This document shows positions 1 through 56,500 of a stretch of DNA of 64,000 nt, piece by piece (within the stretch, counting starts at the first letter, position 1; each line of letters opens with the position of its first letter). This DNA comes from an uncultured virus (IMG/VR IMGVR_UViG_3300042350_002513). Taxonomy: Duplodnaviria; Heunggongvirae; Uroviricota; Caudoviricetes. Both the position numbers and the translations under genes were made by a program. Under the pieces are notes generated by a model. The model searched no databases and was not told where the DNA came from. It worked only from the letters and a program-made list of their open reading frames with translations. The stretch lies in IMG/VR virus record IMGVR_UViG_3300042350_002513. One strand, 5' to 3'.

Positions 1-3000
1 TTTTATTTATCTCTCTAATAGTTTGAGCGCGATTTTTTTCTATATCAATTTGATTAGAGATTTGAAGATTGATGCTATTGTATTGAGAATTTAAAGATTT
101 AAGAACTTCTTCATTTTCTTTAAGTCTCTTAGTGTTTTCTGCTAAAATTTCTCCAAGGTTTTTCGATCTTTTGGCGAAATCAAAAACGTCTATTCCTGCT
201 TTTTTGAGCGAGTCGAATAAAGAACTTAATGCTACAGTATCAAATTCAGCAAAAGCTTTGTCAAGCTGATCAATTATTTCTTCAGGAATAACTGTATTCT
301 GTTTTAACTGAGCTTTTATATTTTCTACGCTCTCTTTATTAACCATTGGTTGTGCGCCTATGCGGGAACCATAAGGCCCAATAGTCTCTTGACTATAAAT
401 AATTGCTTGAGATTTTAAAGAATCAATAAATTTAGAAAAGTCTGCTGCGGCATTTTCTCCAGTAAATTTTTTAGTTATATCTTCTGATCTAATAGAAGAG
501 GTGAATAATCTATTAAACACTTCTTGATCTTTTGGCTTTAAACTACTTCTACCCAAAAAAGAAGATTGCTTTTCAATAAATTGCGTGATAGCTAATTGTC
601 GCTCTAAATTCTTTTGCGTATTGGCCATTTCTTTATTTACTTCACCAATAGCTTCAGTAACCTTACTTATCTCCGTCCCTGCGGCTAACACTTTACTTCT
701 GAACTGTTCAGGAATACTATTTAAAGCTTCTGTTAAATTATTTTGAAACTTTAATAGTGCTTCAGGCTTTGTCTTAGGATCATTTAAAGCGTTTTGTAAA
801 CCTTCTAAAGAAGTAGAGTAATTTTGAGCGGCACCAGAAAACTCAGCAGATCTTTCTTTTGTCTCTCCCAAAGATTTATTAATTTTATCAATAGCCTCTT
901 CAGCTTTGGCATCTTTTAATTTAATAAGAGCAGATCCAGCTCCTAAAATTACTCCTGCTATTGCTCCGTAAGGGCCAAACTGTGCCCCTAAGCCAGCAAA
1001 AGAAGCTATGTCTCCTAAGCCAGAAGCTGCGGCTCTTCCTGTTTTATTTTCTGGAGATATGAATTGTCCACCAATATTTGAAGCTACACTACCAATTAAA
1101 CCAATTTGAGTGCCAAGCCCTCTAACGTATCTATCTGCTTGCCCTCCAGACGCAAAACTTGCTCTTGAAAATACAGGAGCTTGAGCCTGTCTTATATTTT
1201 CTTGCGCTTGTCTTCGTCCCTCTCTAGCGGCAGATAATTCTTCTCTTGCTCTTTTTCTTAGTTCAGATTGTTGTTTTCTTAGCTCTTCTAATCTAGCTAC
1301 TTGTTCTGGAGACGCAGCAACAGGAGAGCTTGTAACAATACCAAATGGATCTTTAGTTGTTTTCCCGACTAAAGGAGCGGTAGCAGTGCCTTGAAGTTTT
1401 AAAGTTGTTTTATTTACATTTGTAAATGTTCTTTCAATCTCATCAGATATTGCTTTTTGACTCTTTTTGAAGTCTTTTGGTATTTGTCCTATCTGTTGAG
1501 AATAAGAAGCGGCAGCAGAAGCATTTGATTTAATTAAAGTATCAGAACTACCTTTTAAAGTTCTAAGGCTTCCTGCAACTTCTTTTAAAGCAGTACTAAG
1601 AGTTCCAAAAGCAGCAATTAATATAAAAGCATCTGCGCCCCCAAACTCAGCAAAATTAGGAATATGTCCTCTTGCAGACATTCCTTTTGTCTTAGGATCT
1701 ATTCCAGCTTTTTCTGCTAATCCAATTCCATTATTAAGAGAGCCTTCTGTAGAATTATAAACACCCAATCCCATTGGATTGAAGCTAGTCTTTAATTTAT
1801 CGCTTCTACCTAATCTAACCTGAGAAGCAGAATATCCAGCAGACATTTCTCTATTCATTGCCTCCATAACTGGATTAAAATTAGGGATATAACCTGAAGC
1901 AAATCTAAAATCATCTTCGTATCCGAGACTACCTAAAGAAGATTTTCTCTTAGAAGCTAGGCCGCTTCCTAGATTAAACATTCCTGTATCAACTATGCTA
2001 ACTTTACCACCCTTAGTAAAGATAGAGCTTAAAATTCTGTCAATTTGAGCTTCTGCATCTTTGTTGTCTTTTGATTCAATAGACTTTAGTAATTTCTCAT
2101 AATTTCTTCTAGAAATCTTAGACAAGATACCTTCAGCTACTTGATTATACATCATATTGCCAAGGTTTTGAGTTAGGTCAACTGCCTCCATTCTACCTCC
2201 TGCATTAATTTGAGAAGTAGCTCTGTCGGCTATGATTTCTGCGAGTTGGACAAATCCTCTTCTTTCTCCAGTATATTCGTCTAAATTTTCAGAAATTTCT
2301 TGTGCTGTTTTTCCAGAGAAAATCTCTTTATAAATAGCACTCTTTTGTATAGCTTTTGACAATGCTCCATAAATCTTAGGAGTTTCAAAAATTGGGTTTA
2401 ATTGTTCTGCACCAATCATCTGGCCAAGCTCTTGTGAAGCTAAGTATTCATTTGCTACATTAGATTTTGTAGATGATTTGTTATCTGGGAATTGTTTTAC
2501 TCCTAGATTTCCTCTTAATGCAGAAAATGTTCCAAAAAATCCGGGTTTTCCTAATTGCATTCTAGCAAAGTTAGGAATATGACCCGATGAATAATTAGAT
2601 ACGAAATCTCTAAACTTTGAAGCTTTGCCTTGATCAATTATAGATTTGTTTTGCTTATAAGTAGAGATAATGAAGTTCATCAACTCGGGAGTTAGTGAAC
2701 CTTGAATTTCTTTTAAATAAGAGCCTACTTGCTCTGCGTTAGCTGCCCAAACGCTTGCCATTGATTTAGCATGAGCTTCTCCTTCTGTTCTATTAACTTG
2801 GTGAGCGGCTTCATGAAAAACAGTATCTAATATTTCTCTAGAATAGATGTCTCTAAATTTACCAACTGATTTTATTTTCTTTCCTTGTTTAGCTTTTTCT
2901 TGAGAAATCTTTCTAATTCTATCTATAACTGTCTCTACATGAGCAAATGGTTCAACTATAGATTTCGTACCTGCTTCTTTTGATGAAGCAGTATTTAAAC

Positions 3001-6000
3001 CCATCCAATTAGCTCCAACAGCTAAACCTCTAAACGAAGCATTAGCCATTCTTGGATCAAAAATCTCAGAAGCCTGTCCAATTGTTTGTTCAAAAACGCT
3101 TTTTAAAGCAGCACCAAAATTTTGGAATTTAGGATTTCCAGCAATACTCTCCATTGTTCCTTTAGGCAAAGAAGAAGAAACATCAAGAAGCTCAAGACCA
3201 GAACCCATTTGATAAGAAGGGACATTCCTAACGCTATCTTCTTGAGCGCGTTTTAATTGTGCAGCTAAATCCTGTACGGCAGATTTTGCCATTTTGCCTA
3301 ATGGCCCTCTTAACTCAGTTCTGTCAGTATTCCAAGGATAATTTGGATCACCTGCACCAACATTACTCCTAACATTAAACATTAAACTTTTAGGAATATA
3401 GTCTACTCCTTCTACTTTATAGTTAGCATACTTCATTCCCTCTGACAGCATGGGAATCTGAGCGTATCCATAAGTTTTTTGAGGATCTCCTTGAGGATCA
3501 AACAATATATCTACTTCTCCACCTTCTGCCGTTAAAGTTCTTTGTACTGAAGATTTACTAGGATCAAATTTAGAAAAATAATATTTTCTATAGCTAGGAT
3601 CTTCATTTCTAGTATTAATTGTTTGCCTCAATAAACCAGAAGAAGCAGTAGTAAATTTAAATGGAAGTTCTGCTACTTTTCCTGCTCTATTCTCTAAATA
3701 ACTTCCATAAGATATATAACCCTCTTTAGAAGGAGAAGCAGCGAAAGTGGTTCCCATTATTGGAGTATTCTTTTTTTCTGGATTGACTTCTCTCCAAAAC
3801 ATTTTTAACCCATCAAAATTTAAATCACCTCTTGGTTGATTAAAAAGAGTTTCATCTAAACTTATTTTGCCCTTTTGTATGAAATTATTCCATCCTTCTG
3901 GGGTTCCAGAAACAATTGTTCTTATCTTTCTACCATTTATTTCTTTTATAGTATCAAGAAGGAACTTCTTGGAACCCATGAAAATAGAAGCTTTTCCCAT
4001 TCCAAATCCAGATAATCCTTTATTACCTCCTTCATTTCCTGTTTGAGCATATGGTAAAAATTTAGTGAATACATCTTCTGGAGACATTCCAGTACCAACA
4101 TCACTAATTGCAAACTCATTTGGCTTTCCATATCCGCTTACTCCAATGAAAACTCCCTTTTCTTGTCCTGATTGACCGTGAGCGACAGCGTTTTGCAAAG
4201 ACTCTCTAAATACTGTTTCGGGATTAATATCCATTTGTGCTAAATTAATTCCCATTAGTCTAGCGGTATTTACTGTTTGAAAGTCTTTTTGAGCAAAATT
4301 TGGTATAAAACCTTTTGAAAATCCAGTACTAAGCTGACTTACCTTTTTTTCTTGAGCCTTAAAATGCTCTGCCATTTGTAGGCCGAATTTCTTCTTAACT
4401 TTACCAATAAACGATCTTACAGCATCATCATTATTTCTTAATTTATAATCTCCATATTGATCTCCAAATCCGGGGAAAAACTGTCTTACATTTCCAATAT
4501 TTCCCCCAATTACGTCAAAATCTCCAACACCACCACCAGATTGATCTCTTGTGTAATTAGCGGCTAAATTAGTAGAAGCTTCAAAAATAGTACCAGCAAG
4601 AACAGAATAATTTTTACCTGCCTTATTAAAAAATTCATCAACAGAAGCATCCGAATATTCTCCGGGTCTAATATAATTAGCAATTTGTTTTGTTGTTCTG
4701 CGAGAGAAATCTGCTGTTTGTGTAATTAGATTAGTTTTTTCTTCGTTTTGAGAAGACGAATTTAAAGCATAAGATTTAATCTTAAAAGCTCTTCCGTCTT
4801 CTTTTCTCTTAGTTAATATTTCTTCGGTCTTTTCATCTGCAAATAGTTCCTTATTTTTTGCATCTAAATCAAATACAAGCATTGAAGCAGGAGGAACGTA
4901 AGGCTCGTAAACTTGTCTAATTCCTTCTTTAATATTTTCTTGACCTGCTATTTTCTTTCCGGGGGCAAAGTCGCGTCTTATGGTATTTAAATCTGATATA
5001 GCTCCAGATTTCCATCTTGGATCATCTTTTAAAATACTATCTGGAACATATTTTCTAATATCTCCATAAGTGGCTCCTCTTCTAACAAATGTATTTAAAT
5101 CATTTGCAGTAAAAGCAGAACCATCAGTTTTATAAAAACCTTTATCTTGACTCCAAGCTGCCGATGTTCCAGTTGTAATTTGAGAAAGAGAAACGGGAGC
5201 AGATAGACCAGACCCAAGCCACCAATCATTATCTCCATAAGAAGGATTGGTTAAAGGTTTTGGAGCAAAATTAGGAATGAATCCTTTAGCCATGTAAGGA
5301 TTAATTCCATTTTTAGCCATGGATTTTGAAGCTAATTGAGTTGCTGCGCGAGATCCTTGAGGAGGAAGAATATAAGGTTGAGCGAAACCGGGAATATATT
5401 TAACTGTTTCGGCAGTATTCATTATTCCGCCAATTGACTTTGGAGCAGCAACTACTCTACCGGGAGTATAACCACCTTGCATAGCTCCAACCATCTCTGC
5501 GGCTTGCTGTTTAGCTGGAATATACCCTTCTGCGCTTCTTCTTCCAACAATAGTATTCTTTTCAGAAACTCTTAAGCCTGAAGCTAAAAATCTACCGCCT
5601 ATATCAATAGAAGAATTTTTAATTTGTTCCGATAAAGCAGCTTGCTCTATAAGAGTTTGTTTTATTTGCTGCTCTACTTGCAAGCGGGTTCTAGATCCAG
5701 AGATAATGTCTTTAATTAGATCAGGATTATCAGAAAGAATTTTACCAATTTCTGATTGTAAAACAGCTTGTTGCCTTCCAAGAGTATTTAGCCCCAAAAG
5801 ATTTTTAGTCGCATCTCCAGCGAATTTAGTAAAGTTAGCTAATAGTTTTCCAATTGCAAAAGCTCCAATACCTAAACCGGGACCAGTTATAAAATTAGTA
5901 ACGCCACTTAATACACCAGTCGCAATTTTTTCGCCAACTCCCTCTGCGTCTTTTTCATTGTAAGACTCTAAGCTTGAATTAATATAGCCTAAAACTTTTC

Positions 6001-7165
6001 TAATTCCGGGTCCAACGCTTGCTTCTCCAATTGAGGTAGCAAATTTTGTGAAATTAATAGTTGTCTCATTAAGTAAAGCAGAAAGGCTTTCGTTTAATGC
6101 TTTATTCTTTAATATAGCTTCGTCTGCTGCCTTAGAGGAAGTTCTTGTAGCTTCTGCGAATGCAGAATTTTGTTTTGATACGTCTGCTAATGCCGCTTTT
6201 AAAATGTTAATTTGATAAACACCACCAACAAGTTCAGCAACTTGAGATTTAATAACAGGATTTAAATTTTGAAATGACTGAGCCAAGTTTTCAATAACTT
6301 TAATCGTTGGCAAAGCATTTCCTGAAATATCAGTAACAGCAATACCAAAGTCTTTCAAATCACTGATAACTTGAGGTCTTTCTATTCTTGTAAAAATAGT
6401 CTTTAAAGCGTTACCGATTACAGCACCACCACGGGCAGTTGTTTGCTGAACAGAAGTAACAATACCTAACAATTCATCAAAACTAACTCCAGCTTCGCTG
6501 GCTGAAGAACCTACACGCTGAATAGCTTCGGACAAGTCTCTAGAACTAACTGCGAATTTAGCGTCAACGGCGGCTAACTTATTTACTACATCAGTTGTAG
6601 TGAGAGCTTCTTTTGTAAATGAGTTTACAGCAGCAGTAAGAGCCTCAGTACTAGAAACGACATCAAGACCAGAAAGACGAGTTAAGATAAGAGCATCTCT
6701 TGTTCTCTTTAATGTCTCTTCTAATCCCAAACCTTGTCTTGAAAATTCTGTTGCAGCACTGGCTACATCTTTAAAAGCCGATCCAGTATTTTTTGCTACA
6801 CTAAATAACTGATCTCCAAATTGCTTGATACCCTTAGAAGATGTATTTAATACTACATTGATATCAGTAAGAGACTTTTCTACTTCGATAGTAGTATTTA
6901 CTAAAGAGGAAAATGACTTTTGAACTGCAAAAATAAGACCAGCAGAAGCTCCGAATGCGACTACACGGGCATTTGAAGCTTCCAAAGACTTTTGGAATTC
7001 ATTAGCTAAACCAGTAATTTTACCCAGTGGTTGAGAAAAATTTCTTGTATTTAGAGAAAGATTACTCTTGCTCTGGATACGGTTCAACGCCGACAACACA
7101 TCTTTTTCAAGTTGCGCGGCAGCAAATGTCGCTGAAATGGGAATATTTCCTGCTGATGTAGCCAT
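1..7165 (-). CDS. Tape measure protein (partial, runs off the left end), with inserted enzyme-like domains
   Basis: Not in the ORF track because there is no stop in the window. Hand translation from ATG 7165 gives MATSAGNIPIS...ASAATEFSRQGLG...VVNKLAAVDAKFAVSSRDLSEAIQRVGSSASEAGVSFDELLGIVTSVQQTTARGGAVIGNALKTIFTR, a TP901-type TMP domain. Frame spot-checked open at 5284, 4312, 2584, 1894, 1669 and position 2. Follows the chaperone and tube genes. Confidence 0.9.
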   Translation of the reverse strand, partial: MATSAGNIPISATFAAAQLEKDVLSALNRIQSKSNLSLNTRNFSQPLGKITGLANEFQKSLEASNARVVAFGASAGLIFAVQKSFSSLVNTTIEVEKSLTDINVVLNTSSKGIKQFGDQLFSVAKNTGSAFKDVASAATEFSRQGLGLEETLKRTRDALILTRLSGLDVVSSTEALTAAVNSFTKEALTTTDVVNKLAAVDAKFAVSSRDLSEAIQRVGSSASEAGVSFDELLGIVTSVQQTTARGGAVIGNALKTIFTRIERPQVISDLKDFGIAVTDISGNALPTIKVIENLAQSFQNLNPVIKSQVAELVGGVYQINILKAALADVSKQNSAFAEATRTSSKAADEAILKNKALNESLSALLNETTINFTKFATSIGEASVGPGIRKVLGYINSSLESYNEKDAEGVGEKIATGVLSGVTNFITGPGLGIGAFAIGKLLANFTKFAGDATKNLLGLNTLGRQQAVLQSEIGKILSDNPDLIKDIISGSRTRLQVEQQIKQTLIEQAALSEQIKNSSIDIGGRFLASGLRVSEKNTIVGRRSAEGYIPAKQQAAEMVGAMQGGYTPGRVVAAPKSIGGIMNTAETVKYIPGFAQPYILPPQGSRAATQLASKSMAKNGINPYMAKGFIPNFAPKPLTNPSYGDNDWWLGSGLSAPVSLSQITTGTSAAWSQDKGFYKTDGSAFTANDLNTFVRRGATYGDIRKYVPDSILKDDPRWKSGAISDLNTIRRDFAPGKKIAGQENIKEGIRQVYEPYVPPASMLVFDLDAKNKELFADEKTEEILTKRKEDGRAFKIKSYALNSSSQNEEKTNLITQTADFSRRTTKQIANYIRPGEYSDASVDEFFNKAGKNYSVLAGTIFEASTNLAANYTRDQSGGGVGDFDVIGGNIGNVRQFFPGFGDQYGDYKLRNNDDAVRSFIGKVKKKFGLQMAEHFKAQEKKVSQLSTGFSKGFIPNFAQKDFQTVNTARLMGINLAQMDINPETVFRESLQNAVAHGQSGQEKGVFIGVSGYGKPNEFAISDVGTGMSPEDVFTKFLPYAQTGNEGGNKGLSGFGMGKASIFMGSKKFLLDTIKEINGRKIRTIVSGTPEGWNNFIQKGKISLDETLFNQPRGDLNFDGLKMFWREVNPEKKNTPIMGTTFAASPSKEGYISYGSYLENRAGKVAELPFKFTTASSGLLRQTINTRNEDPSYRKYYFSKFDPSKSSVQRTLTAEGGEVDILFDPQGDPQKTYGYAQIPMLSEGMKYANYKVEGVDYIPKSLMFNVRSNVGAGDPNYPWNTDRTELRGPLGKMAKSAVQDLAAQLKRAQEDSVRNVPSYQMGSGLELLDVSSSLPKGTMESIAGNPKFQNFGAALKSVFEQTIGQASEIFDPRMANASFRGLAVGANWMGLNTASSKEAGTKSIVEPFAHVETVIDRIRKISQEKAKQGKKIKSVGKFRDIYSREILDTVFHEAAHQVNRTEGEAHAKSMASVWAANAEQVGSYLKEIQGSLTPELMNFIISTYKQNKSIIDQGKASKFRDFVSNYSSGHIPNFARMQLGKPGFFGTFSALRGNLGVKQFPDNKSSTKSNVANEYLASQELGQMIGAEQLNPIFETPKIYGALSKAIQKSAIYKEIFSGKTAQEISENLDEYTGERRGFVQLAEIIADRATSQINAGGRMEAVDLTQNLGNMMYNQVAEGILSKISRRNYEKLLKSIESKDNKDAEAQIDRILSSIFTKGGKVSIVDTGMFNLGSGLASKRKSSLGSLGYEDDFRFASGYIPNFNPVMEAMNREMSAGYSASQVRLGRSDKLKTSFNPMGLGVYNSTEGSLNNGIGLAEKAGIDPKTKGMSARGHIPNFAEFGGADAFILIAAFGTLSTALKEVAGSLRTLKGSSDTLIKSNASAAASYSQQIGQIPKDFKKSQKAISDEIERTFTNVNKTTLKLQGTATAPLVGKTTKDPFGIVTSSPVAASPEQVARLEELRKQQSELRKRAREELSAAREGRRQAQENIRQAQAPVFSRASFASGGQADRYVRGLGTQIGLIGSVASNIGGQFISPENKTGRAAASGLGDIASFAGLGAQFGPYGAIAGVILGAGSALIKLKDAKAEEAIDKINKSLGETKERSAEFSGAAQNYSTSLEGLQNALNDPKTKPEALLKFQNNLTEALNSIPEQFRSKVLAAGTEISKVTEAIGEVNKEMANTQKNLERQLAITQFIEKQSSFLGRSSLKPKDQEVFNRLFTSSIRSEDITKKFTGENAAADFSKFIDSLKSQAIIYSQETIGPYGSRIGAQPMVNKESVENIKAQLKQNTVIPEEIIDQLDKAFAEFDTVALSSLFDSLKKAGIDVFDFAKRSKNLGEILAENTKRLKENEEVLKSLNSQYNSINLQISNQIDIEKNRAQTIREINK

Positions 7166-7193: not shown

Positions 7194-8210
7194 TTAAACG
7201 CCGTGTAATTTGATTAAATCTTCAAAACTTAATGAGCCGCCTTTTTTCTTTGCGGCTTCATCTAGAGAGATGGCTCCAGTATTGTCTTGCTTTAATTTCT
7301 TTAGGTCTTCCTTGGTAGCTCCCATCACAGAAACGGCTTGGACAGCGGTTTCTTTGCCTGAAGCCGCATTTTTATCTTCATGCAGTTTTTCAAGATTACT
7401 ACTAGACTCATACCAATCAATAATCTTATCTACATCATCATTATATTCATCAGGATGCTTGACGCTAGACTTGCTCATCAAGTCTTTGAAGTATCTAGCG
7501 TATCCAAACAATTCAACCTGATAGAATGTCAAATGAGTAACTGGTTTACCAAAGAAAAAGAATGGATTATCGTCTGCTAAGTAAAAATAATTAAGGAAAA
7601 AGCCGCTAACTCCTATTCTTTTTATATTATGGTTATTGAACTTTTGGGCGCATTTAGAATAAGCACCGACTAAATTAAATAACTCAACTTGATCTATATC
7701 TTCAAATTCTTCTAATGTAAAAGCCTGTTTTTCGCATTTTTCATCAAGGTATACAGAATAATAAATATAAAACTCATTCATTCTTTTGCCCGAATAAGTC
7801 TCGCAAGTGTTTTCTAGGAGATCGTCTTTCTTTTGCTGTAACCGATTAGTTTCTTCAGTTATCTCTTTCATCTGCCTATCAATATTCTCCAAGTCTCTAG
7901 TTAAGTATAATTTGCGGCGAGTTTTCATTAAATTCGCAAGAGTAAGTCTATTATTTTCTATCTTTTTATCGTCTTTTTCGTTGTATATATTTTCTTTAAT
8001 TAGCTCTTTTATCTTTTCTTCGTTTGTTGGAATACCTTGGGATTTAGCTTTGTTATAATAGTAATTTTCTTGAACTTCAATTGTTCCTGCGTCTTTTGGA
8101 GACATATGCTTAACATAGTAAGTCTTACCATTTAATTTAAATGAAGAAGACCCAGTTACTATATCCCAATAAAGAGATTTTAGATTTTTATTAAAAGCTT
8201 CTAGATCCAT
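7194..8210 (-). CDS. Probable tail assembly chaperone
   Basis: 338-aa charged helical ORF directly upstream of the TMP; function from position only. Confidence 0.5.
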   Translation of the reverse strand: MDLEAFNKNLKSLYWDIVTGSSSFKLNGKTYYVKHMSPKDAGTIEVQENYYYNKAKSQGIPTNEEKIKELIKENIYNEKDDKKIENNRLTLANLMKTRRKLYLTRDLENIDRQMKEITEETNRLQQKKDDLLENTCETYSGKRMNEFYIYYSVYLDEKCEKQAFTLEEFEDIDQVELFNLVGAYSKCAQKFNNHNIKRIGVSGFFLNYFYLADDNPFFFFGKPVTHLTFYQVELFGYARYFKDLMSKSSVKHPDEYNDDVDKIIDWYESSSNLEKLHEDKNAASGKETAVQAVSVMGATKEDLKKLKQDNTGAISLDEAAKKKGGSLSFEDLIKLHGV

Positions 8211-8215
8211 ATACT

Positions 8216-8241
8216 AAAAAGCCCCCGCTCTCGCAGGGGCT
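8216..8241 (-). terminator. Intrinsic terminator
   Basis: AAAAAGCCCC...GGGGCT hairpin with a U-tract on the minus strand. Confidence 0.65.
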
Positions 8242-8262
8242 AGGATTAATTAACGCAAGAAA

Positions 8263-9003
8263 TTAAAAGATTTTTTGTTCTAACTTTAGCACATCGAAGT
8301 CCTCCTTCGAATTTGCTCTACCGACGTACCAGAAACTAATAAAGTAAATGAAAGCGTTAGCTACTTTTACTAGATGAGGATCTTCTGATTCAAAGATTTC
8401 GTCATACCTGTTCATTCGGGCTTCATAATCTCCTTCACCAAAGAATGGTTGTTTCTCCCCGTTTTTCTCATAGTATGACAAAAATAATATCCACCAAGTA
8501 ATTACTTTATTACGCGCCCTTGTTTCTGCGGTATTGTCAAACAACGACTCTTTTTGTACCTCTAGTTCTGTTAGAGAGTTTTTAATTACAGTAATCTTGG
8601 TTTCTAGCTCTTCTTTTTTAGCTGTAAAATAATCTGGTCGATCTTTCTCTTCTAAAGCAAGAAGTCTTTGCAACTCGTTTTGAGCATCATACAAATCCTT
8701 ATAAGCATCTGCTTCTGCGTTTTTAGTTCTATCTGCTAAAATTCCACCATCATCAACATATCTCTTATTTAGTAGAGTACGAGTAAGAAGACCAGCTTTT
8801 ACTCCTTCAGAAAGCTTAACGCCATAAAACAATTCAGCTTCGTCAAACAAAGCTCTAGTAGGCTTTTTGATAAAATAGTTATGAGGAATCTGAGTAGTTA
8901 CGTCTTTAGTAATCGTGACTTTTTGACCAGCCTCGTTTACAGACTCTTCTGTTTCTTTTACAACACCTTCTTTATTTATTGCAAATTCGTATATCGTTTT
9001 CAT
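8263..9003 (-). CDS. Probable tail assembly chaperone
   Basis: 246-aa ORF between tail tube gene and TMP; function from position only. Confidence 0.5.
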   Translation of the reverse strand: MKTIYEFAINKEGVVKETEESVNEAGQKVTITKDVTTQIPHNYFIKKPTRALFDEAELFYGVKLSEGVKAGLLTRTLLNKRYVDDGGILADRTKNAEADAYKDLYDAQNELQRLLALEEKDRPDYFTAKKEELETKITVIKNSLTELEVQKESLFDNTAETRARNKVITWWILFLSYYEKNGEKQPFFGEGDYEARMNRYDEIFESEDPHLVKVANAFIYFISFWYVGRANSKEDFDVLKLEQKIF

Positions 9004-9221
9004 TATAAATCTATATTATTTAGTTCTTCTTCGAACTGTCTGATGGTATCATTGCCAGAATCAAGAACTTTTTTTCTTAGCCTTTGATACTTATCTTCAG
9101 AGATATTATAACCATCTTCTTTTAAATCTTCAAGTAAGATTAAAAAGTTTTTATATAGATTAATAACTTTACGCCGATTTTGAAAGAGAATAAACTCTTT
9201 CATTTTTATATCCATAGCCAT
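9003..9221 (-). CDS. Hypothetical protein
   Basis: 72-aa ORF whose stop overlaps the next start codon. Confidence 0.7.
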   Translation of the reverse strand: MAMDIKMKEFILFQNRRKVINLYKNFLILLEDLKEDGYNISEDKYQRLRKKVLDSGNDTIRQFEEELNNIDL

Positions 9222-9270
9222 AATACCTTTGAAATGCCTTTACCTAATAATCTTTACACGCATAAAAACA

Positions 9271-9300
9271 AAAAAGCCCCAGTTTTTAGGCTGGGGCTTT
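9271..9300 (-). terminator. Intrinsic terminator after tail tube gene
   Basis: AAAAAGCCCCAG-loop-CTGGGGCTTT hairpin. Confidence 0.8.
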
Positions 9301-9319
9301 GAAGTTGATATTTATTTAA

Positions 9320-10504
9320 TTAGTGGAGAGGCAAGGTCTCAAGCATGAATAGTCCTCTATCATTTTGTTGAGGAGAACCGACTTGAGTAGAGAAGTTCAA
9401 TGTAACCTGCTTGTTGGCTCCGATTGAAGAAGAGAAGTCTTGTGAATCCAAGTTAAGTCTCTTTAGAACGTAACCAACTCCCTCGCTGGCGATTAGATCT
9501 GTATTAGCAGTAGCAGGAGCAGCGAGAGTAATAACAGCGTCATAAAGACCGTCTGTATTTACTAGATCAACCAAGTTACCAGTAGTAAGATCTTGTACTA
9601 AAGCTGTGACAGAAAGAGTTACGGTAACTGGGAAATCAATTTCTCTTGAATAAGCGTATCTGCTTCCGATCTTTTGCAATGGAGTTCTGTTTAGACCCAT
9701 TGAGATAGAGAAGTTTTGAATAGCAGCAGAGGTAGTTAAATCTGTACCACCATAAGACTGACCTTGAGTCTTTGTTAGAGAGAAGGAAATATCTCCGTGT
9801 CTAAGAGCAGCAACTTTTCCTAAAGCATTTTCACCATTAGGATTGCCTGTAGCTTGAGGTAGAATAAAAGCACCTCCAGCAACGTTTCCAGCAGAAGTGA
9901 CTCCGGGGGCTGCGCCTGAATTTCCATTGCTGAAATTCATGTTTAAGCACTCCAAACTAACAGAAGTAGTTGGGAAATCTCCTACGGCGGCATTAATCGA
10001 ATAATTAGTTAAGAAACCATTTCCTAATCCAATTGTACTTCCTACTGTTTGGTTAGCAGCAGTATCACCAGCAAAAGAGGAAGCATCATTACCTTCAGAA
10101 ACTGTTCTGATAAAATAATTTTTAGTATTGACAAATCCACTAGTAAGAATTCCAGACAAGCAAGATTGAGTAGCAGCAGCACTAGTTATATTAACGATGC
10201 CAGTGATTCCAGCGTCAATAACTGAGAAGCCAAGATTTTTTTCATTAGCCATGTCTGTTAGCAAGTAAGTAAAATCAACTCCTACAGTGGGTTGCTCTAG
10301 AATAATACGATCAATAGCAGCTAGATCGCCGAATTGGTTAACGTCTCTTCTTGCAATATTGAAATTATAATTACAAGATTGGACGCGAGAAAACTGGTTA
10401 ATATATAAATTTCCAGTTTGTGGTGGTGTAGAAGCCGCTACGTCAACAATGTCTTTTGTGTTGAATAGTGCTTCTGATTGGTAAATTACACGATTTCTTG
10501 GCAT
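9320..10504 (-). CDS. Probable major tail tube protein (paralogue 1)
   Basis: Beta-rich, 394 aa, upstream of chaperones/TMP, followed by a strong terminator; paralogous to 10565-12226 and 43719-44993. Confidence 0.65.
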   Translation of the reverse strand: MPRNRVIYQSEALFNTKDIVDVAASTPPQTGNLYINQFSRVQSCNYNFNIARRDVNQFGDLAAIDRIILEQPTVGVDFTYLLTDMANEKNLGFSVIDAGITGIVNITSAAATQSCLSGILTSGFVNTKNYFIRTVSEGNDASSFAGDTAANQTVGSTIGLGNGFLTNYSINAAVGDFPTTSVSLECLNMNFSNGNSGAAPGVTSAGNVAGGAFILPQATGNPNGENALGKVAALRHGDISFSLTKTQGQSYGGTDLTTSAAIQNFSISMGLNRTPLQKIGSRYAYSREIDFPVTVTLSVTALVQDLTTGNLVDLVNTDGLYDAVITLAAPATANTDLIASEGVGYVLKRLNLDSQDFSSSIGANKQVTLNFSTQVGSPQQNDRGLFMLETLPLH

Positions 10505-10564
10505 ATTTTTAATCCTTTAAATTTCTTTTTATTATTACATTTTTTATTCTGTTTTGAGAAATTA

Positions 10565-12226
10565 TTATATGATTTCTTGTCTTTGCATCCAATAATCTCC
10601 CTGCATAAATACACCTTTAGTGGAATCTTGAGGAGAACTCATTTGACCTCCAAAGGTTAAAGTAGCTGTTTTGTTAGCTCCAATTGAGGAACTAAAGTCT
10701 AAAGATTCTAACTGCGCTGATTTAATTAAATATCTTACACCAGTTATCTTACCATAACTTGAAACTTCAGTTCCGGGTTTAATAAAAGATACTGAAGTAT
10801 TGAATTTGATATCTTTACTAGAAACTACATCAACTAAATTACCAGTTGCTAATTCTGAAACTAAAACATTTACAGAAAAAGAGTAATTAATTGGGAAAGT
10901 TATTTCTTTAGCAAAATTAAAAGTATTTCCAAGTTTATTTAGAGACTCTCTAGATAAACCAATTGATAAAGTGAAATTTTGAGCGTTTAAAGAAGAAGAT
11001 CTTGTGTCAATTCCTAATCCTCCAGAAGCATAAAAAGGACTTAAATCAAGTACAATACTTCCGGGTCTAAATGCAGATATATTTTGTGATAGATCTGATC
11101 TGCTATTGAAATCAGGAAGAGAATAAGTTCCATTTACTCTTGTGCCGCCTTCGTCTATTGAAGGCAAAGGATAACGTTTGCCAGCGGCACTAGATTTAAA
11201 GTCATTTGCTCCAGTAACGATAGAAAAGTTTCTAGCTTCGTTACTAATCGCTACGTTTGGAATATCTCCTACTGCTGCATTTACGGCATAATTTGTAATA
11301 ACTGAATTTCCAAAAGCAATAATAGCTTGATCTAATGTCCCAGTAGTCGCAACGCTTACGTCATTACCTTGAGGGACTGTCCTTACAAACAAGTTTCTTT
11401 CATCGCTTGCTTTTGTGAGTATTCCACTTAAACAAGTTACGTCTATAATGCTAGAAGTACCTTCTGGATAGTTATTTGCAAGAGTTGGAGAGAAAGTAGA
11501 AGCATTACTTGTTCCTCCAATACCAACATTGACAGGAACATTAGTATAAGAATTTGTAAAAGCTACTTGAGAAGAATTAATATAAATAACACCTGATCCA
11601 CCATTAGTTATTGAAACGCCAGTAGCTTGACCTGCATAGACACCTCCAGTCGCCACATTAAAAGAAAGGACGGGAGGTACATTCGCTCCTACTTGAGGTA
11701 ATGTTAAAGTAAACGAATTTAAATAGCCTTGACCCCCATCGGCAATAGAAACCTCAGTAATTCCAAATTCGGATTGCCCAGAAACAGTAACTGTTAAATT
11801 TACAGCAGCACTTCTCTTCAAAGAAGTTGTAGTGAAACCTAATTCTTTTTCGTTCTTAAGACCGTTTTGATAGTAATTAAAATCAATATTTATTACTGGT
11901 TGCTCTATAATGATTTTGTCTATTGCGGCCAAATTTCCAAATTGATTTACATCTCTTCTGCCAACATTAAAGTTATAATTAATACTTTGTATACGATCCA
12001 AATTAGCTAAATTTGGAAGCAAACCTGCTTGCATAGTAGCAAGATTAGTTGTGGTAGTACCTGCTCCAGAAGTTAAAGTTCTTGTAGCAAGAGGATCTAA
12101 TTGATTTAATTTTTGAGTAGGAACGTTTACGTTACTTCCTGTTACGAACTTATAGTGACCAGATATGGCTGGCGAAGGGCCAACGTATAATGCTTCGTTT
12201 TGGTAAATTACTCTAGTTTTCGCCAT
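10565..12226 (-). CDS. Tail tube-like protein (paralogue 2) with inserted beta domain
   Basis: Shares RVIYQ.EALY, RRDVNQFG.LAAID, NAAVGD.P and FSSSIGANK with paralogue 1; carries an extra GGQGY/GGSG-containing insert. Confidence 0.6.
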   Translation of the reverse strand: MAKTRVIYQNEALYVGPSPAISGHYKFVTGSNVNVPTQKLNQLDPLATRTLTSGAGTTTTNLATMQAGLLPNLANLDRIQSINYNFNVGRRDVNQFGNLAAIDKIIIEQPVINIDFNYYQNGLKNEKELGFTTTSLKRSAAVNLTVTVSGQSEFGITEVSIADGGQGYLNSFTLTLPQVGANVPPVLSFNVATGGVYAGQATGVSITNGGSGVIYINSSQVAFTNSYTNVPVNVGIGGTSNASTFSPTLANNYPEGTSSIIDVTCLSGILTKASDERNLFVRTVPQGNDVSVATTGTLDQAIIAFGNSVITNYAVNAAVGDIPNVAISNEARNFSIVTGANDFKSSAAGKRYPLPSIDEGGTRVNGTYSLPDFNSRSDLSQNISAFRPGSIVLDLSPFYASGGLGIDTRSSSLNAQNFTLSIGLSRESLNKLGNTFNFAKEITFPINYSFSVNVLVSELATGNLVDVVSSKDIKFNTSVSFIKPGTEVSSYGKITGVRYLIKSAQLESLDFSSSIGANKTATLTFGGQMSSPQDSTKGVFMQGDYWMQRQEII

Positions 12227-12230
12227 AATT

Positions 12231-13079
12231 TTATGTTTGTCTTGGCTCTCTAAATTTAACTAATTCAAAATCAATTAGTCCATAATAAGAACCGGGATTA
12301 ATATTGTTCTCTCTATCTCTTACACCTGCGACCTTTGAGACGGAAACCCTATCTATCATGCAGTAGTCTTTGCCGCTTGTAATGTTATTATAATTAAAAA
12401 CTACCCCGCTCTTAAAGCTGCCTAAAACATTAAATGGATTGTATGTTGGATCAATTAGAGGAACGTTGTCGTAATTTCTATCTCTAAATAATGAACAAAC
12501 TGCATCTAATGTATATTGTGAATCAGCAATAACAATGGCTCTAAAGTCTACTCTCGTTTCGTCTGTTCCGCCGAAAGCCCAAGGATCATTTGTGCTTCCA
12601 TTATTTTTGATGAAAATTACAGGGTAAGTTATTGTATTTTCTTTTAAAGAATCCTTTAAAGATCCAGCAGGGGTTTTATTTCTTCTAACGTATTGAGTTT
12701 CAAATAGCAGCACCTCTTCTGGTTGAGATGTCATCAACACGTTAAACTCTTTAACCGAATAAGTTCCAGAAACATTAAGAGATCCAGAACTTAAATAAAT
12801 CTGCCCCTCTGAATAGTTTATACCACTTAGAGGGCTTTGACCTAAATTGTAATTTGCGCCATTTATGCTAACTCCCGTCATTACTGTTGCTCCAGCAATT
12901 GAAGAGTCATATACTAATCCTTTATAAGGTCCGTTATAAGCATAAAAACCATTCACATAAGAAGAATTGGCGGGAAATGTAGTAGTTACATTATAGTAAG
13001 CCTCACCCTTGGATAATAGAGTGTGATCAAACCACATTAAAAATGATGAAGATATTTGATTGTCAAATTGCGGTTTCAT
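12231..13079 (-). CDS. Putative tail terminator/neck protein
   Basis: 282 aa, immediately upstream of the tube genes; YP.IFI motif; mostly positional. Confidence 0.45.
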   Translation of the reverse strand: MKPQFDNQISSSFLMWFDHTLLSKGEAYYNVTTTFPANSSYVNGFYAYNGPYKGLVYDSSIAGATVMTGVSINGANYNLGQSPLSGINYSEGQIYLSSGSLNVSGTYSVKEFNVLMTSQPEEVLLFETQYVRRNKTPAGSLKDSLKENTITYPVIFIKNNGSTNDPWAFGGTDETRVDFRAIVIADSQYTLDAVCSLFRDRNYDNVPLIDPTYNPFNVLGSFKSGVVFNYNNITSGKDYCMIDRVSVSKVAGVRDRENNINPGSYYGLIDFELVKFREPRQT

Positions 13080-13690
13080 TGTTTGAGTTTATCCTTTAGA
13101 TTTTTTAGTATTGTACTCAAGTATTTTACAGTAGAGAAAGAGCCTGATCTAACTTTGTCATCTGCCTGAATACCGCCGCCAGATCGGCTAGGCTCAGGAG
13201 ATTTAAATTTTCCAGACAAGTAATACCCCAATCCAGAAATACCTCTTTCAATTCCTCTAACCCAGCTTCTTCCAGCTTCCCAAGGTAATGGAGTTTTTTG
13301 TTCTATTGACTTTAATGTAGGAACTGAAACAGGGAATTCGAATTGAACACCTGTTTCTGTAGTTCTTGTTTTGGGAGTTCTATTTAGTAGGATTTCTTCT
13401 TCTAAAGCTTGCCTTACCTGCTGCGTAGGCTGAGAGTCTTGATCAAATCCAATAAATGAAAATAAATTAGAGTCAGGTTTTGTTCCGGGTAAAGTTTTTG
13501 AGATATTCTTTCCTTCGGCTCCCATTTCTAATTCGACAGTAACTGGGTGCTGATCAAATTCTTTTATTGTTTGATTTTTAAGTCTTTGAAATTCTTTTTC
13601 GGCTCTTTGGTAGGCTAAATTCTGAATATCTTTACTGAAAAGAAGTTTTTTGACTTCTCTATTTAAAATTGTCTTATTTATTGTAGCCAT
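13076..13690 (-). CDS. Putative neck/tail completion protein
   Basis: 204-aa basic protein in the connector cluster; positional. Confidence 0.4.
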   Translation of the reverse strand: MATINKTILNREVKKLLFSKDIQNLAYQRAEKEFQRLKNQTIKEFDQHPVTVELEMGAEGKNISKTLPGTKPDSNLFSFIGFDQDSQPTQQVRQALEEEILLNRTPKTRTTETGVQFEFPVSVPTLKSIEQKTPLPWEAGRSWVRGIERGISGLGYYLSGKFKSPEPSRSGGGIQADDKVRSGSFSTVKYLSTILKNLKDKLKQ

Positions 13691-14130
13691 TACATTATTT
13701 CCTTCATCATGTACTCGTAATAAGGTTCATCAATATACCTTTTAACTACAAAACCATATTGCACATTCCAAGACTTATTGTCGAAAGTTATTCTTTCTGT
13801 TTTACCATTTTCAATGTAATCTTTAGCTTCTAAGCGAACTCTTATTCTTGCAGTAGTATTAGGATTTTTAATCTCAGAATTTAAAGACACAATGTCTTCA
13901 TCTGGACTACCATAAAATATTCTAGCTTTATAAACTCCAGAGACTGGTGTATAAGTTACACTATCAGGCAATTGATCTGTAGGATAACCAAAGACAGGAG
14001 TTTCATTAACAGAAGTTATATTTTTAATAGGCTCTTTGTAAACGACAATATCCCTAGACAATGTATCAAAAAGATCATTGTAATTTGATCCAAAGCTAAG
14101 TCTTTGTGCGTCTGTTAGTAAAGATGCCAT
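13690..14130 (-). CDS. Putative head closure (stopper) protein
   Basis: 146 aa, beta-rich, ending RITFDNKSWNV; positional. Confidence 0.45.
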   Translation of the reverse strand: MASLLTDAQRLSFGSNYNDLFDTLSRDIVVYKEPIKNITSVNETPVFGYPTDQLPDSVTYTPVSGVYKARIFYGSPDEDIVSLNSEIKNPNTTARIRVRLEAKDYIENGKTERITFDNKSWNVQYGFVVKRYIDEPYYEYMMKEIM

Positions 14131-14132
14131 AA

Positions 14133-14627
14133 TTAAATTCTATTGAATGGTCTGATTGAATAATACTTATCGGTAATATAAGACCCAGCTACGGTATCGT
14201 CGCCAGCAACTTGTAGAGGACCAACGTCGTTAATATTGTAATCATTAACCATCGCAGTTAATTCATTAAGTGAATTTTTCTTTGCTTCTAAGTATATTTT
14301 ACTGGTTTCGTTTCGGTTGATTCTGCGAACAGTTCCACCGCCATCTGTAACTTCCAACAAGCTATCTCCATTTATTGCATTTAAAGTTTGCTTGACTTTT
14401 AGATCGTAGAAATAACATTCATAGATCTTTTTATAAATAGACTTCTCTGTTTCTCCCAAATTGGGCACAAGCTCCAAAGAAGCGTCGTCTATAATAATGT
14501 CTTTGTTCAGTTTATTATTAAGAATACCTATATTGCTCCTAAGCCAATAACTAATGGCTGGTACTGATAGATCACTTGGTTGACCTAATTCGAAATAGAG
14601 TTCTTGAGCCATGTCTACGATTTTCAT
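14133..14627 (-). CDS. Putative head-tail adaptor
   Basis: 164 aa, helical followed by a beta hairpin; first gene of the connector cluster. Confidence 0.4.
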   Translation of the reverse strand: MKIVDMAQELYFELGQPSDLSVPAISYWLRSNIGILNNKLNKDIIIDDASLELVPNLGETEKSIYKKIYECYFYDLKVKQTLNAINGDSLLEVTDGGGTVRRINRNETSKIYLEAKKNSLNELTAMVNDYNINDVGPLQVAGDDTVAGSYITDKYYSIRPFNRI

Positions 14628-14628
14628 A

Positions 14629-15009
14629 TTAGTATGTTATTTCTGGATTAATTACAAAATAGCCACCTTCAACAGTACGAGCATAATCTTCTCCCGAGAA
14701 AACTTGAACATCGTATAATAAGTAACTAGATGGTAAAGCCGCCATTCCTGTTCTACCTATGCTGATATCGATATATCCGCTGACAAAACTTTCTCCTGCG
14801 GCTCCTGATATGATTTGTGGCTTTAAGTCTAATAAAATACCAGAGCTTGGTACATACACATTGTCGTTTGTATACCCTGCCCCATAACTTGCCCTTACAT
14901 AGCCAGAAGCCGTGAAGCCCGATAAGTTCATTACAACTCCATCAGAGTCACGGGCAACAAGTCTCTTATAAAAAGAGTTTCCTTGTGTACCTGTTAAATT
15001 CATACACAT
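14629..15009 (-). CDS. Virion protein, BppU-N/Ig-like beta sandwich
   Basis: QGNSF...NLSG.TA...YDVQ...VEGG.F.I.PEIT pattern typical of phage structural beta-sandwich proteins. Confidence 0.5.
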   Translation of the reverse strand: MCMNLTGTQGNSFYKRLVARDSDGVVMNLSGFTASGYVRASYGAGYTNDNVYVPSSGILLDLKPQIISGAAGESFVSGYIDISIGRTGMAALPSSYLLYDVQVFSGEDYARTVEGGYFVINPEITY

Positions 15010-21862: not shown

Positions 21863-24800
21863 TTATTTGTATAGTGGTATAAATACTGTATCTCCGGGAT
21901 TGGCCGCGCCAGTTTGAATTGGCATCCATCCAACAAATGTTTTACCAGCCGTACCTCCTGCTGCTCCTACAAGTTGAGCAGTTTCAACTCTAAGAACTGG
22001 AGCAGTACCATCGCCTTTAATATGAAGCCTTGCTGCGGCTGGATTAGTTAAACCAATTCCAACGTTACCATTAGTTTCTAATGAGTGATAAGTGCTTGCT
22101 CCAGCGCCCAAAAGGAGTTTTCCATTGTCTGTCCTAATTGTAGAGTTTCCTAATCCGCCGTCTGTTGATCTATTAGAAGAATTAGTGAACATCACCAATC
22201 CATTAAGGTTACTATTTCTACGGAATACTAACGCAGCAAAAGCATTTGATCCTGTATTAGCATTTCTAACGGCAGAAATATTCCCTCCGTTTACATCATC
22301 ATAAACATCAAACTTTGTATCAGGAACTGTAGTTCCAACACCAACGTAACCATTGCTTGCGTCAATGCGCATTCTTTCTGATGTACCATTAGCATAGAAT
22401 CTTAAGTGAGCCGCAGTTGTACCATTGCTGTTATAATTAATGAACATACCATCTGTATTGACCGTAGATTCATTTCTAAGAACTCTTATGTTTGCGTATA
22501 TATCGTTAGCGCTAGAGGCAGTGTTTAATACCGCGACTGTTCCAAATCTTAGAATGTTTGCAGAAGCAATGCTAACATCACCACCAGAGACTTGCAATCT
22601 ATAAGCTGGATTTGTTAAACCAATACCAACATTGCCTAAATTATTAATTCTAACTCTTTCTACGTTAGGAAGATCAAATGGAGAAGTATGCAATGCAAGA
22701 CCGACTTTTCTATTATAACCTGCTCCTGCTCCACCAGCGCCGATGTCTTCTTCTGAAACAGCATATATACAAGCAGATTTTTCAAGAGCATTTGGCGCAT
22801 CAACGCTGCCGCCACCCATCTTTATACCCCATTTTGCATTATTATTTGAATTAGACGCTGGAACAGCGTTAAATGGAGCAGTTAATATTAAGAAGTCATT
22901 AACCAAATTAGCATTCATTAACGCACTGGTGCTAATTGAACCTAATTGTATTCTTGAACCTGTAGGAGTAGTTTCTACAACATGTAATCTACTGGTGGGA
23001 GTAGTTATATTTATACCAAAATTTCCACCATTTTTTAATGTAACTTGTTGAGAACCAGATCCAGCAGCACCAAATATTAGATCTCCGCCATTTGTATGGA
23101 GACGAACGTCATTTGAACCAGCCTCTCTTCTCATTCCATGAGACGAACCTCCAACGAAAAATCCTCCTGCTACCGCATTACTATTAGCATCAGATACCAC
23201 GAATCCTCTAACATCTAATTTTTGAGCAGCGGCTGTCGCGCCTATGCCTACGTTGCCATTTGTAACAGCTAAATATGTATTATAGTTTGTGCTTACAGTT
23301 CCATCACCATAAACAACCATTGAAGTAAGATTATTAGAGCTTCCTCTAAAAGATGTTGATCCACCATTAGTAGAGGATATAATGTTAGAACCGCCATCTA
23401 AATAATTCAAATGAGTGAAAAAAGAAGAACTTGATGCGATACGAATCTCACCGTTAACTTGTAATTTAGAAGCTGGATTAGTTGTGCCAATACCTAAATT
23501 TCCCTCAACGATTAATCCATTCGCAGGAGCAGCGACATTATAAGTATTTGAACCTATACTTGCGTTACCAATAACAGATAATTTATTAATAGGATTATTT
23601 GTGCCAATTCCTACTTCGTTATTTTTTACTACTAAGTCGCCGCTGCCATATTGACCCATTACTATTCTATCGTCTGCGAATACTTCAAGCACTGGTAAAC
23701 CAGCAGAGTTATTAACGGACATCAAAGAGTCGCTCAAATCATCTACAACACTAAACAACGTACCATTTGTTCCATCCGCTCTAAATACAGTATCATTTGA
23801 AACAGAAGAAACGACATGAAGTTTACCACTAGGCAATGTCGTACCTATTCCAAGATTTCCTGCGGTAGTAGTATTAATAGATCTAATATAATCTAATCGT
23901 GCTACCGCTTCAGACTCAGAAGTATCTCTTGTAAACCAAGTTAGCCAATTGCTCCCTGCTTTATTTAAGAATCTAATATTACTATAGTGATAAAGAATAT
24001 CGCGTAATTCTAGAGATCCAACTATTTGGAAATTGCCATCTGTTTTTAAAATATTTTCACCAATACGGTAAAGATTCACTTCAGTGTCTCCACCAAATGT
24101 TATACCACTAGCTGCCGTTGTAGAACCTAAACCACCAACAGATAATAAAGTAGTTGGGGTATTTGTACCAATACCGACTCTACCATTTTGTTTAATACGC
24201 ATGGTTTCGGGGCGGTTATAAAGATTTTCATTTACATAATTATTTTGAAATATATGATCTTGATAAGCACCATATATCATACTATCTGAACCTACAGCCG
24301 CTCCTGCATTTCCAAATGCGACATATCCACCAACATTATTATCTAAGAAAACTAAACCTGCATATGTTCCATTATCAGCAGAATTTCTGAATGTTATGTA
24401 ATTACTTGCATTAGAATCAAGTAACACATTTGTTCCTGCTGGAGTAGTGCCGATTCCCGCTGGAATAGAAGCGCGGACATTCAATAGCGCAGTAGGAGTA
24501 GTTGAACCTATACCGACAAATGATCCATCAATAACCATCCTTGTAGTACCACTTGTACCAAAAGAAAGAGGTTGGTTATTTAAAGTTTGTAATTTAACTT
24601 GATAGCTAGTTCCATCTCTTACAGCAGAAAATTCTCCCAAAGCAACCCCTAATTCACTCAATTTAAAACCTACTTTATTATTAGCAGAAACTCCATTGCT
24701 TCTAATATTAGCTAATATATTTTCGCCGCTATTTAAGTTAACTTGGAATTTGTCTCCGGGATTTGTTATACCTATACCAACATTACCATTACCAACTGGT

Positions 24801-29296: not shown

Positions 29297-29300
29297 ATTA

Positions 29301-54723: not shown

Positions 54724-54909
54724 TTGGCACGGTCCATGCTCCCCAGCACGTTTCATGCCAAGTCTAAGTTGGCACACTTTTTGCTCCCCAGCAAGTCCTA
54801 TGCCAAGTCCGTCCAAACGATAGTTTTCCAATCTGGGGTCCCCAATTCCGAAAACTATCAAATCCCCATAGTTGGCATGGTTTCTGCTCCCCAGCAAGGG
54901 TCGTGCCAA
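54724..54909. promoter_or_regulatory. Three 38-bp palindromes, each two head-to-head sigma54-type boxes
   Basis: TTGGCA-N7-TGCT-CCCC-AGCA-N7-TGCCAA at 54724-54761, 54769-54806 and 54872-54909. Confidence 0.8.
54819..54859. repeat. 41-bp boundary element, copy 1
   Basis: GATAGTTTT CCAATCT GGGGTCCCC AATTCCG AAAACTATC. Confidence 0.95.
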
Positions 54910-55031
54910 GTGCCCGTTAACGTAGAAAATTAAAGTAGATTTAGTTCTTGTATATATATAAGTATATAGTAAATTGGCATAGTCAGTTTGGTTCTTATAT
55001 AAATACAACGTCACTATATAAATACAACATC

Positions 55032-55460: not shown

Positions 55461-55514
55461 TATATAAACAGTGGGGCGCGAATACTATAAACGCGCATTT
55501 AATACTAAAACACT

Positions 55515-55712: not shown

Positions 55713-55768
55713 TAATACTACTTCTTGTTGTCGTGTTAATAGGCATGACTAGATAAGCCCTTAATGAC

Positions 55769-56496: not shown

Positions 56497-56500
56497 TCAC

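Follow-up and report, generated by a model that had tools for sequence, protein, structure and literature searches.

A recurring peptide fences apparently swappable modules in the tape measure protein of an uncultured phage

Tape measure proteins (TMPs) leave the phage tail first at infection, and in a few phages they carry an enzyme. Piuri and Hatfull are said to have described, in 2006, a cell-wall hydrolase motif embedded in the TMP of mycobacteriophage TM4. Here we describe a giant TMP encoded at the very start of 64,000 nucleotides of DNA from an uncultured caudoviricete virus (IMG/VR record IMGVR_UViG_3300042350_002513; this whole stretch is called the window), in which modules, or cassettes, follow one another and are fenced by a recurring junction peptide, G[FYH]IPNF. 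The closest described systems are gp96 of Thermus phage P23-45, a 5,002-residue TMP with an N-terminal virion RNA polymerase (PMC10770324); the polyvalent proteins, which string many unrelated domains on one polypeptide, are predicted to be delivered together with the DNA and to be processed, and have HExxH metallopeptidases as hubs (PMC5512222; Iyer et al. 2017); T5 pb2, which is cut after R1127 into pb2* and pb2C, the latter staying in the tail (PMC10038345); lambda gpH, which is cut into gpH* and gpHC at an unmapped site (PMC12617516), the protease being unknown for both the T5 and the lambda cut; and Sle1, one of the TMP-related, reconfigurable effectors of contractile injection systems (PMC13277306).

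P23-45 gp96 is a giant TMP with a folded enzyme that sits in the virion and acts on entry, much as is proposed for the protein described here, and it also has membrane segments and a metallopeptidase domain; the likeness is drawn from its description. It differs in having one fixed N-terminal enzyme, with no repeated junction peptide or cassette exchange described in the available text. In T5 and lambda, cleavage of the TMP separates a hydrophobic stretch from an enzyme domain and a fragment is kept in the tail, but the available accounts have a single cut near the C-terminus, as against five candidate sites in the N-terminal half here. TM4 and Sle1 share with the present family a TMP scaffold that tolerates added domains, related scaffolds carrying different ones; they differ, in what is available of their descriptions, by having one C-terminal or internal domain and no repeated junction peptide, and by belonging to another lineage and another carrier. 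Polyvalent proteins, which phages and conjugative elements encode, hold two to 15 unrelated, conflict-related domains, often with an HExxH peptidase among them, and at least three unrelated cassettes plus a TMP core are found here; the difference is that the carrier here is a tail ruler and that its modules are fenced by one invariant peptide. The main text of PMC5512222 does not contain the terms "tape measure", "GHKL", or "HSP90", and a literature search by motif string and by topic returned no description of TMP cassettes fenced by a junction peptide. The literature already covers enzymes fused to TMPs, maturation cuts in TMPs, and polyvalent proteins; what appears to be new, on that search, is the recurring junction peptide that fences exchangeable cassettes in a TMP, and this putatively cargo-carrying variant of the TMP is real.

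The TMP open reading frame (ORF) lies on the minus strand and runs off the start of the window, its 2,388 residues being free of any stop or frameshift that might split it; a full-length counterpart (P0002; 3,623 residues, 99% identical, also represented at loci L004 and L008) is of a type encoded without interruption on several viral contigs. Identification of the ORF as a TMP, proposed in an earlier note made from the DNA letters alone, is borne out by a PF10145 match of 99.6 bits against a Pfam gathering score of 33.2 and by matches to 12 PHROG tape-measure families (best E 1.3e-51); judged by these matches, what the ORF encodes corresponds to the N-terminal two thirds of a TP901-type TMP. 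The total of 3,623 residues, the three hydrophobic segments, the helix-favouring composition, and the position in a structural gene module are those of a long TMP.

Five junction motifs and two degenerate copies, all in one frame, lie exactly where the earlier note had located them (Table 1), and a six-frame scan of the window found the motif confined to the TMP ORF. The logo reads [AS]-x-G-[FYH]-[IV]-P-N-[FY]-[ASN], with N in 96% of instances, the invariance of G and P following from the pattern searched. By composition, 0.00012 copies would be expected by chance in the full-length TMP. At a threshold of E<=0.001, 153 proteins emerged from a word-based search that scored 8,000 candidates, and the 120 relatives among the matches listed are TMPs of 1,729-3,908 residues which together (301,576 residues) contain 331 strict copies against 0.014 expected, at least one copy of the strict Ile-only pattern being present in 116 of them. 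With either Ile or Val permitted, 2-8 copies, most commonly four, are present in 201 of 203 distinct TMPs, a set made up of the listed proteins and of ORFs from the loci. The relatives are encoded on at least 557 viral contigs.

Homology between relatives tends to begin and end at these motifs. With P0002 as the reference and 34 relatives compared, i) N-terminal homology stops at residues 957-962, right after motif 2, in 25 relatives, and 1-10 residues past motif 1 or motif 3 in three more, so that it ends no more than 10 residues after a motif in 28 of the 34 (the exceptions are P0004, P0028, P0030, P0032, P0034, and P0035); ii) motif 1 is the breakpoint to P0033, P0036, and P0124, while homology to P0003 stops at residue 1535, past motif 3; and iii) C-terminal homology resumes at residue 1755 or 1756 in 23 of the 34, two to three residues ahead of motif 4. 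Over the cassette zone of 191 non-redundant TMPs, 55% of 22,165 ends of high-scoring segment pairs fall within 3 residues of a motif as against 6.7% at random positions, a comparison subject to interdependence among the pairs and to the pull that a conserved motif exerts on alignment ends.

What lies between the conserved flanks differs from one relative to the next. The variable zone of P0002 holds a 570-residue and a 224-residue cassette; P0003 has the same 570-residue cassette followed by a different one of 186 residues; P0005 and seven others have a single cassette of 275 residues; P0006 and P0011 have stretches of 110 and 504-507 residues; P0007 has two copies of one cassette; and L009 has three tandem copies of one. 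At least five "empty-site" relatives (P0023, P0024, P0026, P0027, and P0031) have the two flanks joined through a single motif, and the unit of exchange is therefore a cassette plus one motif. The cassettes fall into 66 clusters, 45 of them singletons. At the level of the aligned proteins it is thus shown that whole cassettes are exchanged, gained, lost, and duplicated among relatives, and that this happens exactly at the motif; the earlier proposal that the modules between motifs vary while their flanks are conserved, with the motifs as module borders, holds across the homologous TMPs. In AlphaFold models the motif residues occupy low-confidence flanks, with a predicted local distance difference test score (pLDDT) of below 50 to 68, beside cores of 80-95; in these models the motifs behave as exposed linkers between modules, outside the folds. 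We consider it very probable that the TMP is built of swappable modules fenced by the motif.

Between hydrophobic segments 1 and 2 (Kyte-Doolittle, 19-residue window; segment 1 scores 1.46) the array consists of module 1, a core cassette (insert 1), a GHKL-HExxH cassette (insert 2), cassette 3 (insert 3), and module 2, followed by about 1,760 residues of motif-free ruler with a helix-favouring composition. The earlier remark that helical TMP sequence resumes on both sides of the array is borne out in so far as composition can gauge it.

Insert 2 was read in the earlier note as GHKL plus HExxH, and that reading is supported. The single sequence scores 24.2 bits against HATPase_c_3, just below the Pfam cutoff of 25; a profile that includes free-standing relatives matches the HtpG N-domain in the PDB with E 8.6e-18, the nearest Atlas neighbours are viral HATPase_c_3 proteins (0.97-0.98), and the Bergerat residues E31, Q34, N35, D65xG67xG69, and K101 (insert numbering) are each present in at least 125 of 126-147 relatives. 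All 58 aligned relatives retain HExxH(Q), the motif of a putative zincin-like metallopeptidase, in a region that no Pfam or PDB match covers. At insert position 38, 125 of 128 relatives have the N-box Asp, whereas the window copy has Ala (residue 995, 4181-4183), a replacement that may alter ATP hydrolysis; despite it, the window copy keeps the GHKL Glu and Asn and the G1 and G2 boxes. An exhaustive search with insert 2 gave 202 representatives at E<=0.001, mostly within proteins of 1,200-5,900 residues, and a word-based search for shorter relatives gave two fragments only. A Pfam scan of 17 relatives found HATPase families in 13, TMPs in 2, LPD38 in 2, ART-PolyVal in 1, and Acb1 together with a 2'-5' ligase-like domain in 1. 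Insert 2 relatives thus sit in LPD38-, ART-PolyVal-, and Acb1-bearing proteins and, by their domain content, keep the company of polyvalent proteins; they differ from the TMP cassette in lacking the fence, the junction motif being found in just 3 of the 150 relatives listed. In the TMP P0124 the insert 2 cassette is 46% identical, as against 39% for the scaffold, and ends 1 and 3 residues from that protein's own motifs.

Insert 3 recurs in P0033, P0035, and P0036, where it is 52-58% identical while the scaffolds are 37-40% identical, and also in P0125 and three times in P0124, adjoining insert-2-type cassettes; cassettes of the two types adjoin in three TMP scaffolds, P0002, P0124, and P0125. 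A variant fence, GFIPNL, is used in P0125. An alignment of eight copies contains LG.G.[FY]G, a conserved K, D...N with non-canonical spacing, and [IV]D.G, the invariant columns being taken from an alignment with 5 of the 8 copies (A4). We were unable to uphold the description of this insert as kinase-like: kinase-like motifs can be read into it, but the best kinase match is the N-lobe of LIMK2 at E 0.52, no Pfam family matches, and a word-based search found no shorter relatives.

Insert 1, by contrast with the swappable payload that it had been taken for, proves to be the family's core cassette, and a conserved one; its cluster is present in 130 proteins, and a second, possibly related cluster is present in 44 more. 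Invariant residues are G858, F861, E862, D884, F897, K908, and K922, and across 48 sequences E862, D884, [DE]906-x-K908, and K922 vary little or not at all. The resulting E...D...[DE]xK pattern recalls the signature of PD-(D/E)xK nucleases, but no fold match supports the nuclease-like label of the earlier note. An AlphaFold model computed from the 48 sequences for insert 1 and the motifs on either side of it has a mean pLDDT of 76.4, above 90 in the C-terminal half and below 50 in the motif-bearing residues 1-33 and 331-343; comparison of the model with known folds returned no nuclease (Foldseek best E 0.066 in the PDB and 0.15 in BFVD; best VIA Z 4.7 over 39 residues), and an Atlas search with insert 1 gave no usable match. 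None of the three inserts had a PDB match at E<=1 when searched as a single sequence.

Module 2 is predicted to be a small folded domain: its model (78 sequences, mean pLDDT 72.7) has an alpha/beta core at residues 15-70 with pLDDT of about 80-85 and both motifs at the edges with pLDDT 40-68, and it matches no known fold (Foldseek best E 2.9; VIA best Z 2.7). Segment-by-segment structure prediction, recommended in the earlier note, has thus yielded confident cores for insert 1 and module 2 and a fold match for neither. A homotrimer prediction of module 2, run without controls, scored 0.00 and says nothing either way. The likeness noted earlier between the sequences preceding the first and the last motif, a short stretch ending in GI(N/D)P, is seen in a single within-window BLASTP comparison at E 0.004; paralogy of the spacers of modules 1 and 2, about 70 residues each without their motifs, was rejected as not significant (hhalign probability 0.14%, E 0.4). 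Near the C-terminus of P0002 (residues ~3250-3500) are two units of the form D.[IV]PA..GGEYV...[LV]PKYA.GG, whose core, [IVL]P[KR][FY]A, is reminiscent of the junction motif and is shared by 40 of the 120 relatives.

Table 1. Features of the tape measure protein and its junction motifs in the window (nucleotide positions are those of the window; residues are those of the TMP)
Feature	Residues	Nucleotides	Strand	Basis or remark
TMP ORF	1-2388 of 3623	2..7165	-	single open frame; runs off window start
PhageMin_Tail (PF10145) core	124-310	6236..6796	-	E 2.7e-28
Hydrophobic Gly/Ala-rich segment 1	425-443	5837..5893	-	Kyte-Doolittle; upstream of cassette array
Module 1	540-633	5267..5548	-	holds degenerate copies AEGYIPA and KYIPGFA; ends in motif 1
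Degenerate motif copies		GYIP 5516-5527; YIPGF 5384-5398	-	sequence
Junction motif 1, GFIPNF	628-633	5267..5284	-	AKGFIPNFA
Insert 1, conserved core cassette	634-951	4313..5266	-	cluster and alignment
Junction motif 2, GFIPNF	952-957	4295..4312	-	SKGFIPNFA
Insert 2	958-1527	2585..4294	-	Hsp90/HtpG-like GHKL ATPase domain N-terminal, HExxH near C-terminus
HExxH of insert 2	1451-1455	2801-2815	-	alignment
Junction motif 3, GHIPNF	1528-1533	2567..2584	-	SSGHIPNFA
Insert 3, fold without match	1534-1757	1895..2566	-	cassette recurrence
Junction motif 4, GYIPNF	1758-1763	1877..1894	-	ASGYIPNF
Module 2 spacer	1764-1832	1670..1876	-	AlphaFold; predicted small alpha/beta domain
Junction motif 5, GHIPNF	1833-1838	1652..1669	-	ARGHIPNFA
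Hydrophobic segment 2	1842-1864	1574..1642	-	directly after last motif
Motif-free C-terminal ruler start	1865-2388 (to 3623 in P0002)	2..1573	-	composition
Hydrophobic Gly/Ala-rich segment 3	2063-2083	917..979	-	

The explanation that we favor as a whole, at a probability of roughly 0.45, is a cassette-array TMP that delivers cargo and is cut at the junction peptide. The cassettes would be a cargo that exits the tail as part of the TMP when infection begins and that works at an early stage in the host; the junction peptide would be recognized for cutting of the chain, so that the modules are set free; and the cutter would be a phage protease, a host protease, or the TMP itself. Delivery of the cassettes into the host seems to us rather probable, given the known ejection of TMPs and given that cassettes of the GHKL-HExxH type are otherwise found as parts of polyvalent proteins in phages. 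Cleavage of the chain at the motif is a more tentative proposition, suggested by an invariant 9-residue peptide of the kind that an enzyme might recognize, by the cutting of the T5 and lambda TMPs during tail maturation, and by the predicted processing of polyvalent proteins. Asn-dependent autoproteolysis operates in the maturation of nodavirus and tetravirus capsids and at the NPTH loop of FlhB/YscU; that the junction peptide might similarly cleave itself, the invariant Asn attacking its own bond (IPN/F, the slash marking the cut), strikes us as very unlikely.

A number of observations weigh against delivery and cleavage as just described. Full-size gp96 is found in P23-45 virions (PMC10770324), and phage N4 packages its virion RNA polymerase in unprocessed form (PMC5512222). 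No protease family was recognized in the window ORFs scanned; in particular, the ORF at 39930-41399 (minus strand), which the earlier note had named as a protease, had no match in Pfam, PHROG, or NCBIfam even when thresholds were lenient; by its position, between the portal-side and the cement/capsid genes, it could also be a scaffold. Eight ORF families lie immediately upstream of the TMP (7194-15009, minus strand), in an order retained by 52-69 of 76 related loci (L021-L100), and the window copies of these eight include no recognized protease and no member of a known family. The HExxH cassette is present in few family members and is therefore not a general processing enzyme. The motif occurs in no other protein of the window, so that no known maturation substrate shares it, and the tube lumen would have to house about 1,200 globular insert residues per chain. 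Among near relatives of the window the motif Pro is encoded by CCT in 31 of 33 cases and the motif Asn by AAT in 31 of 33, and some homogenization of the joints at the DNA level is possible. Lastly, the T5 cleavage site (...SFVPR/AEGG) loosely resembles [IV]PN[FY]A and the C-terminal [IVL]P[KR][FY]AxGG units of the family, and homology between the T5 site and those units (lPKYAsGG) was considered and rejected, the match covering about 8 residues with a non-significant i-E of 0.57.

Absence of a recognized protease from the window ORFs and the conserved neighbors is what one would expect if the junction peptide were never cut, and served instead as a docking site for an assembly partner, either the products of the two conserved ORFs nearest the TMP or the tail tube's inner wall, so that the cassette region is kept in register and soluble and the TMP enters the host as one chain. 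An invariant, exposed, 9-residue peptide suggests a conserved binding partner as readily as an enzyme; the two nearest upstream families are kept in 69 and 68 of the 76 loci, in the position of tail-assembly chaperones; and P23-45 gp96 functions as a full-size fusion of TMP and enzyme. We nonetheless regard docking as unlikely, since the motif is found only in the cassette zone and not along the ruler of ~1,800 residues that chaperones or tube must also cover. If neither partner nor cut were involved, the peptide could be a purely structural joint, a fixed turn or hinge that insulates the folds and packs them as beads on a string: Gly, Pro, and Asn are typical turn formers, and the motifs lie in linkers between confident folds, one at every module border. 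Generic linkers, however, are not invariant across scaffolds that are down to 33-39% identical, and here the aromatic and aliphatic positions are conserved as well, which makes a mere joint decidedly improbable.

The exactness with which cassettes are exchanged, lost, and tandemly duplicated at the motif, together with the near fixation of CCT and AAT in the near relatives, could also be explained if the motif were mainly a recombination landmark, that is, if shared DNA at the joints let cassettes exchange and the peptide were conserved as a by-product. Codon use speaks to this directly. In 280 distinct motif instances from 76 loci, all synonymous codons are used at every position (Gly 4, Ile 3, Pro 4, Asn 2, and Phe 2); the Pro codons are CCT 182, CCA 81, CCC 9, and CCG 8; and the CCT share of 65% is similar to the 59% for a control Pro in [ND]PY elsewhere in the module. 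Selection therefore acts on the peptide itself, as the invariant G, P, and N require, and a strict DNA-level recombination signal is ruled out by the counts over the 76 loci; moreover, at most about 12-18 nucleotides of imperfect identity offer little to homologous recombination. On these codon counts a pure landmark is unlikely, and short shared DNA may help exchange; as the main explanation of the motif, the landmark is the most improbable of those considered here.

We wish to stress what would follow if the reading of a cargo-delivering, cleaved cassette array were correct, in whole or in part. The whole family appears to follow one building rule, in which an invariant peptide fences every module and swaps occur at that peptide, and such a rule would allow cargo modules to be listed from sequence alone. 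If the cassettes are delivered, the tail would hold a customizable set of early-acting proteins, one type of which is common to polyvalent proteins. The junction peptide would also provide a handle on TMP processing, a question that is open even for lambda. And if self-cleavage were true, the TMP would be a self-processing polyprotein that releases phage-specific, exchangeable effectors after ejection, and hundreds of aquatic phages would contain a natural plug-and-play platform for protein delivery.

The genome is that of an uncultured phage of low GC content and at least about 168 kb, P0002 being encoded on a contig of 167,793 bases; among virus records the nearest is a fragment of 61 kb with a rated completeness of 36%. 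Upstream of the TMP on the same strand are the large terminase, a cement protein, Laminin_G_3 proteins, an Ig-domain tail protein, and two fibre-like ORFs. These last two are adjacent giant ORFs of 2,477 and 2,685 residues (21863-37358, minus strand), with repeated matches to tail-fibre PHROGs and, in one of them, a Laminin_G_3 domain; the head genes lie on one side of the pair and the tail genes on the other. A profile scan of a genome collection, based on the family, found 21 contigs, comprising 20 metagenome bins and one "strain" record; 9 of the 21 bear labels beginning with Flavobacteri, which, for binned phage contigs, is weak evidence of host. A tblastn search with residues 523-1880 found no match in 50,697 deposited phage records, whereas the family member P0040 matched 173 of them, with matches over the PhageMin_Tail core alone (residues about 62-398) among the 25 listed; two of the records beyond those 25 are at 60-80% identity. 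NCBIfam and PADLOC scans gave nothing near their cutoffs, and scans of the window for tRNAs and Rfam families found none.

At the far end of the window, nine dispersed imperfect palindromes of ~44 nucleotides (GATAGTTT...GGGCACCCC...AAAACTATC) are spaced 425-1144 nucleotides apart over 54815-60389, a stretch with 42-45% GC as against ~35% elsewhere that contains short ORFs only and no tRNA or Rfam match; the palindromes may be repeated promoters, terminators, or other regulatory elements of an early-gene region. Just beyond them, on the plus strand and hence opposite to the structural genes, a 130-residue ORF (60426-60818) matches PHROGs annotated as lytic tail protein, endolysin, and transglycosylase (E 2e-8).

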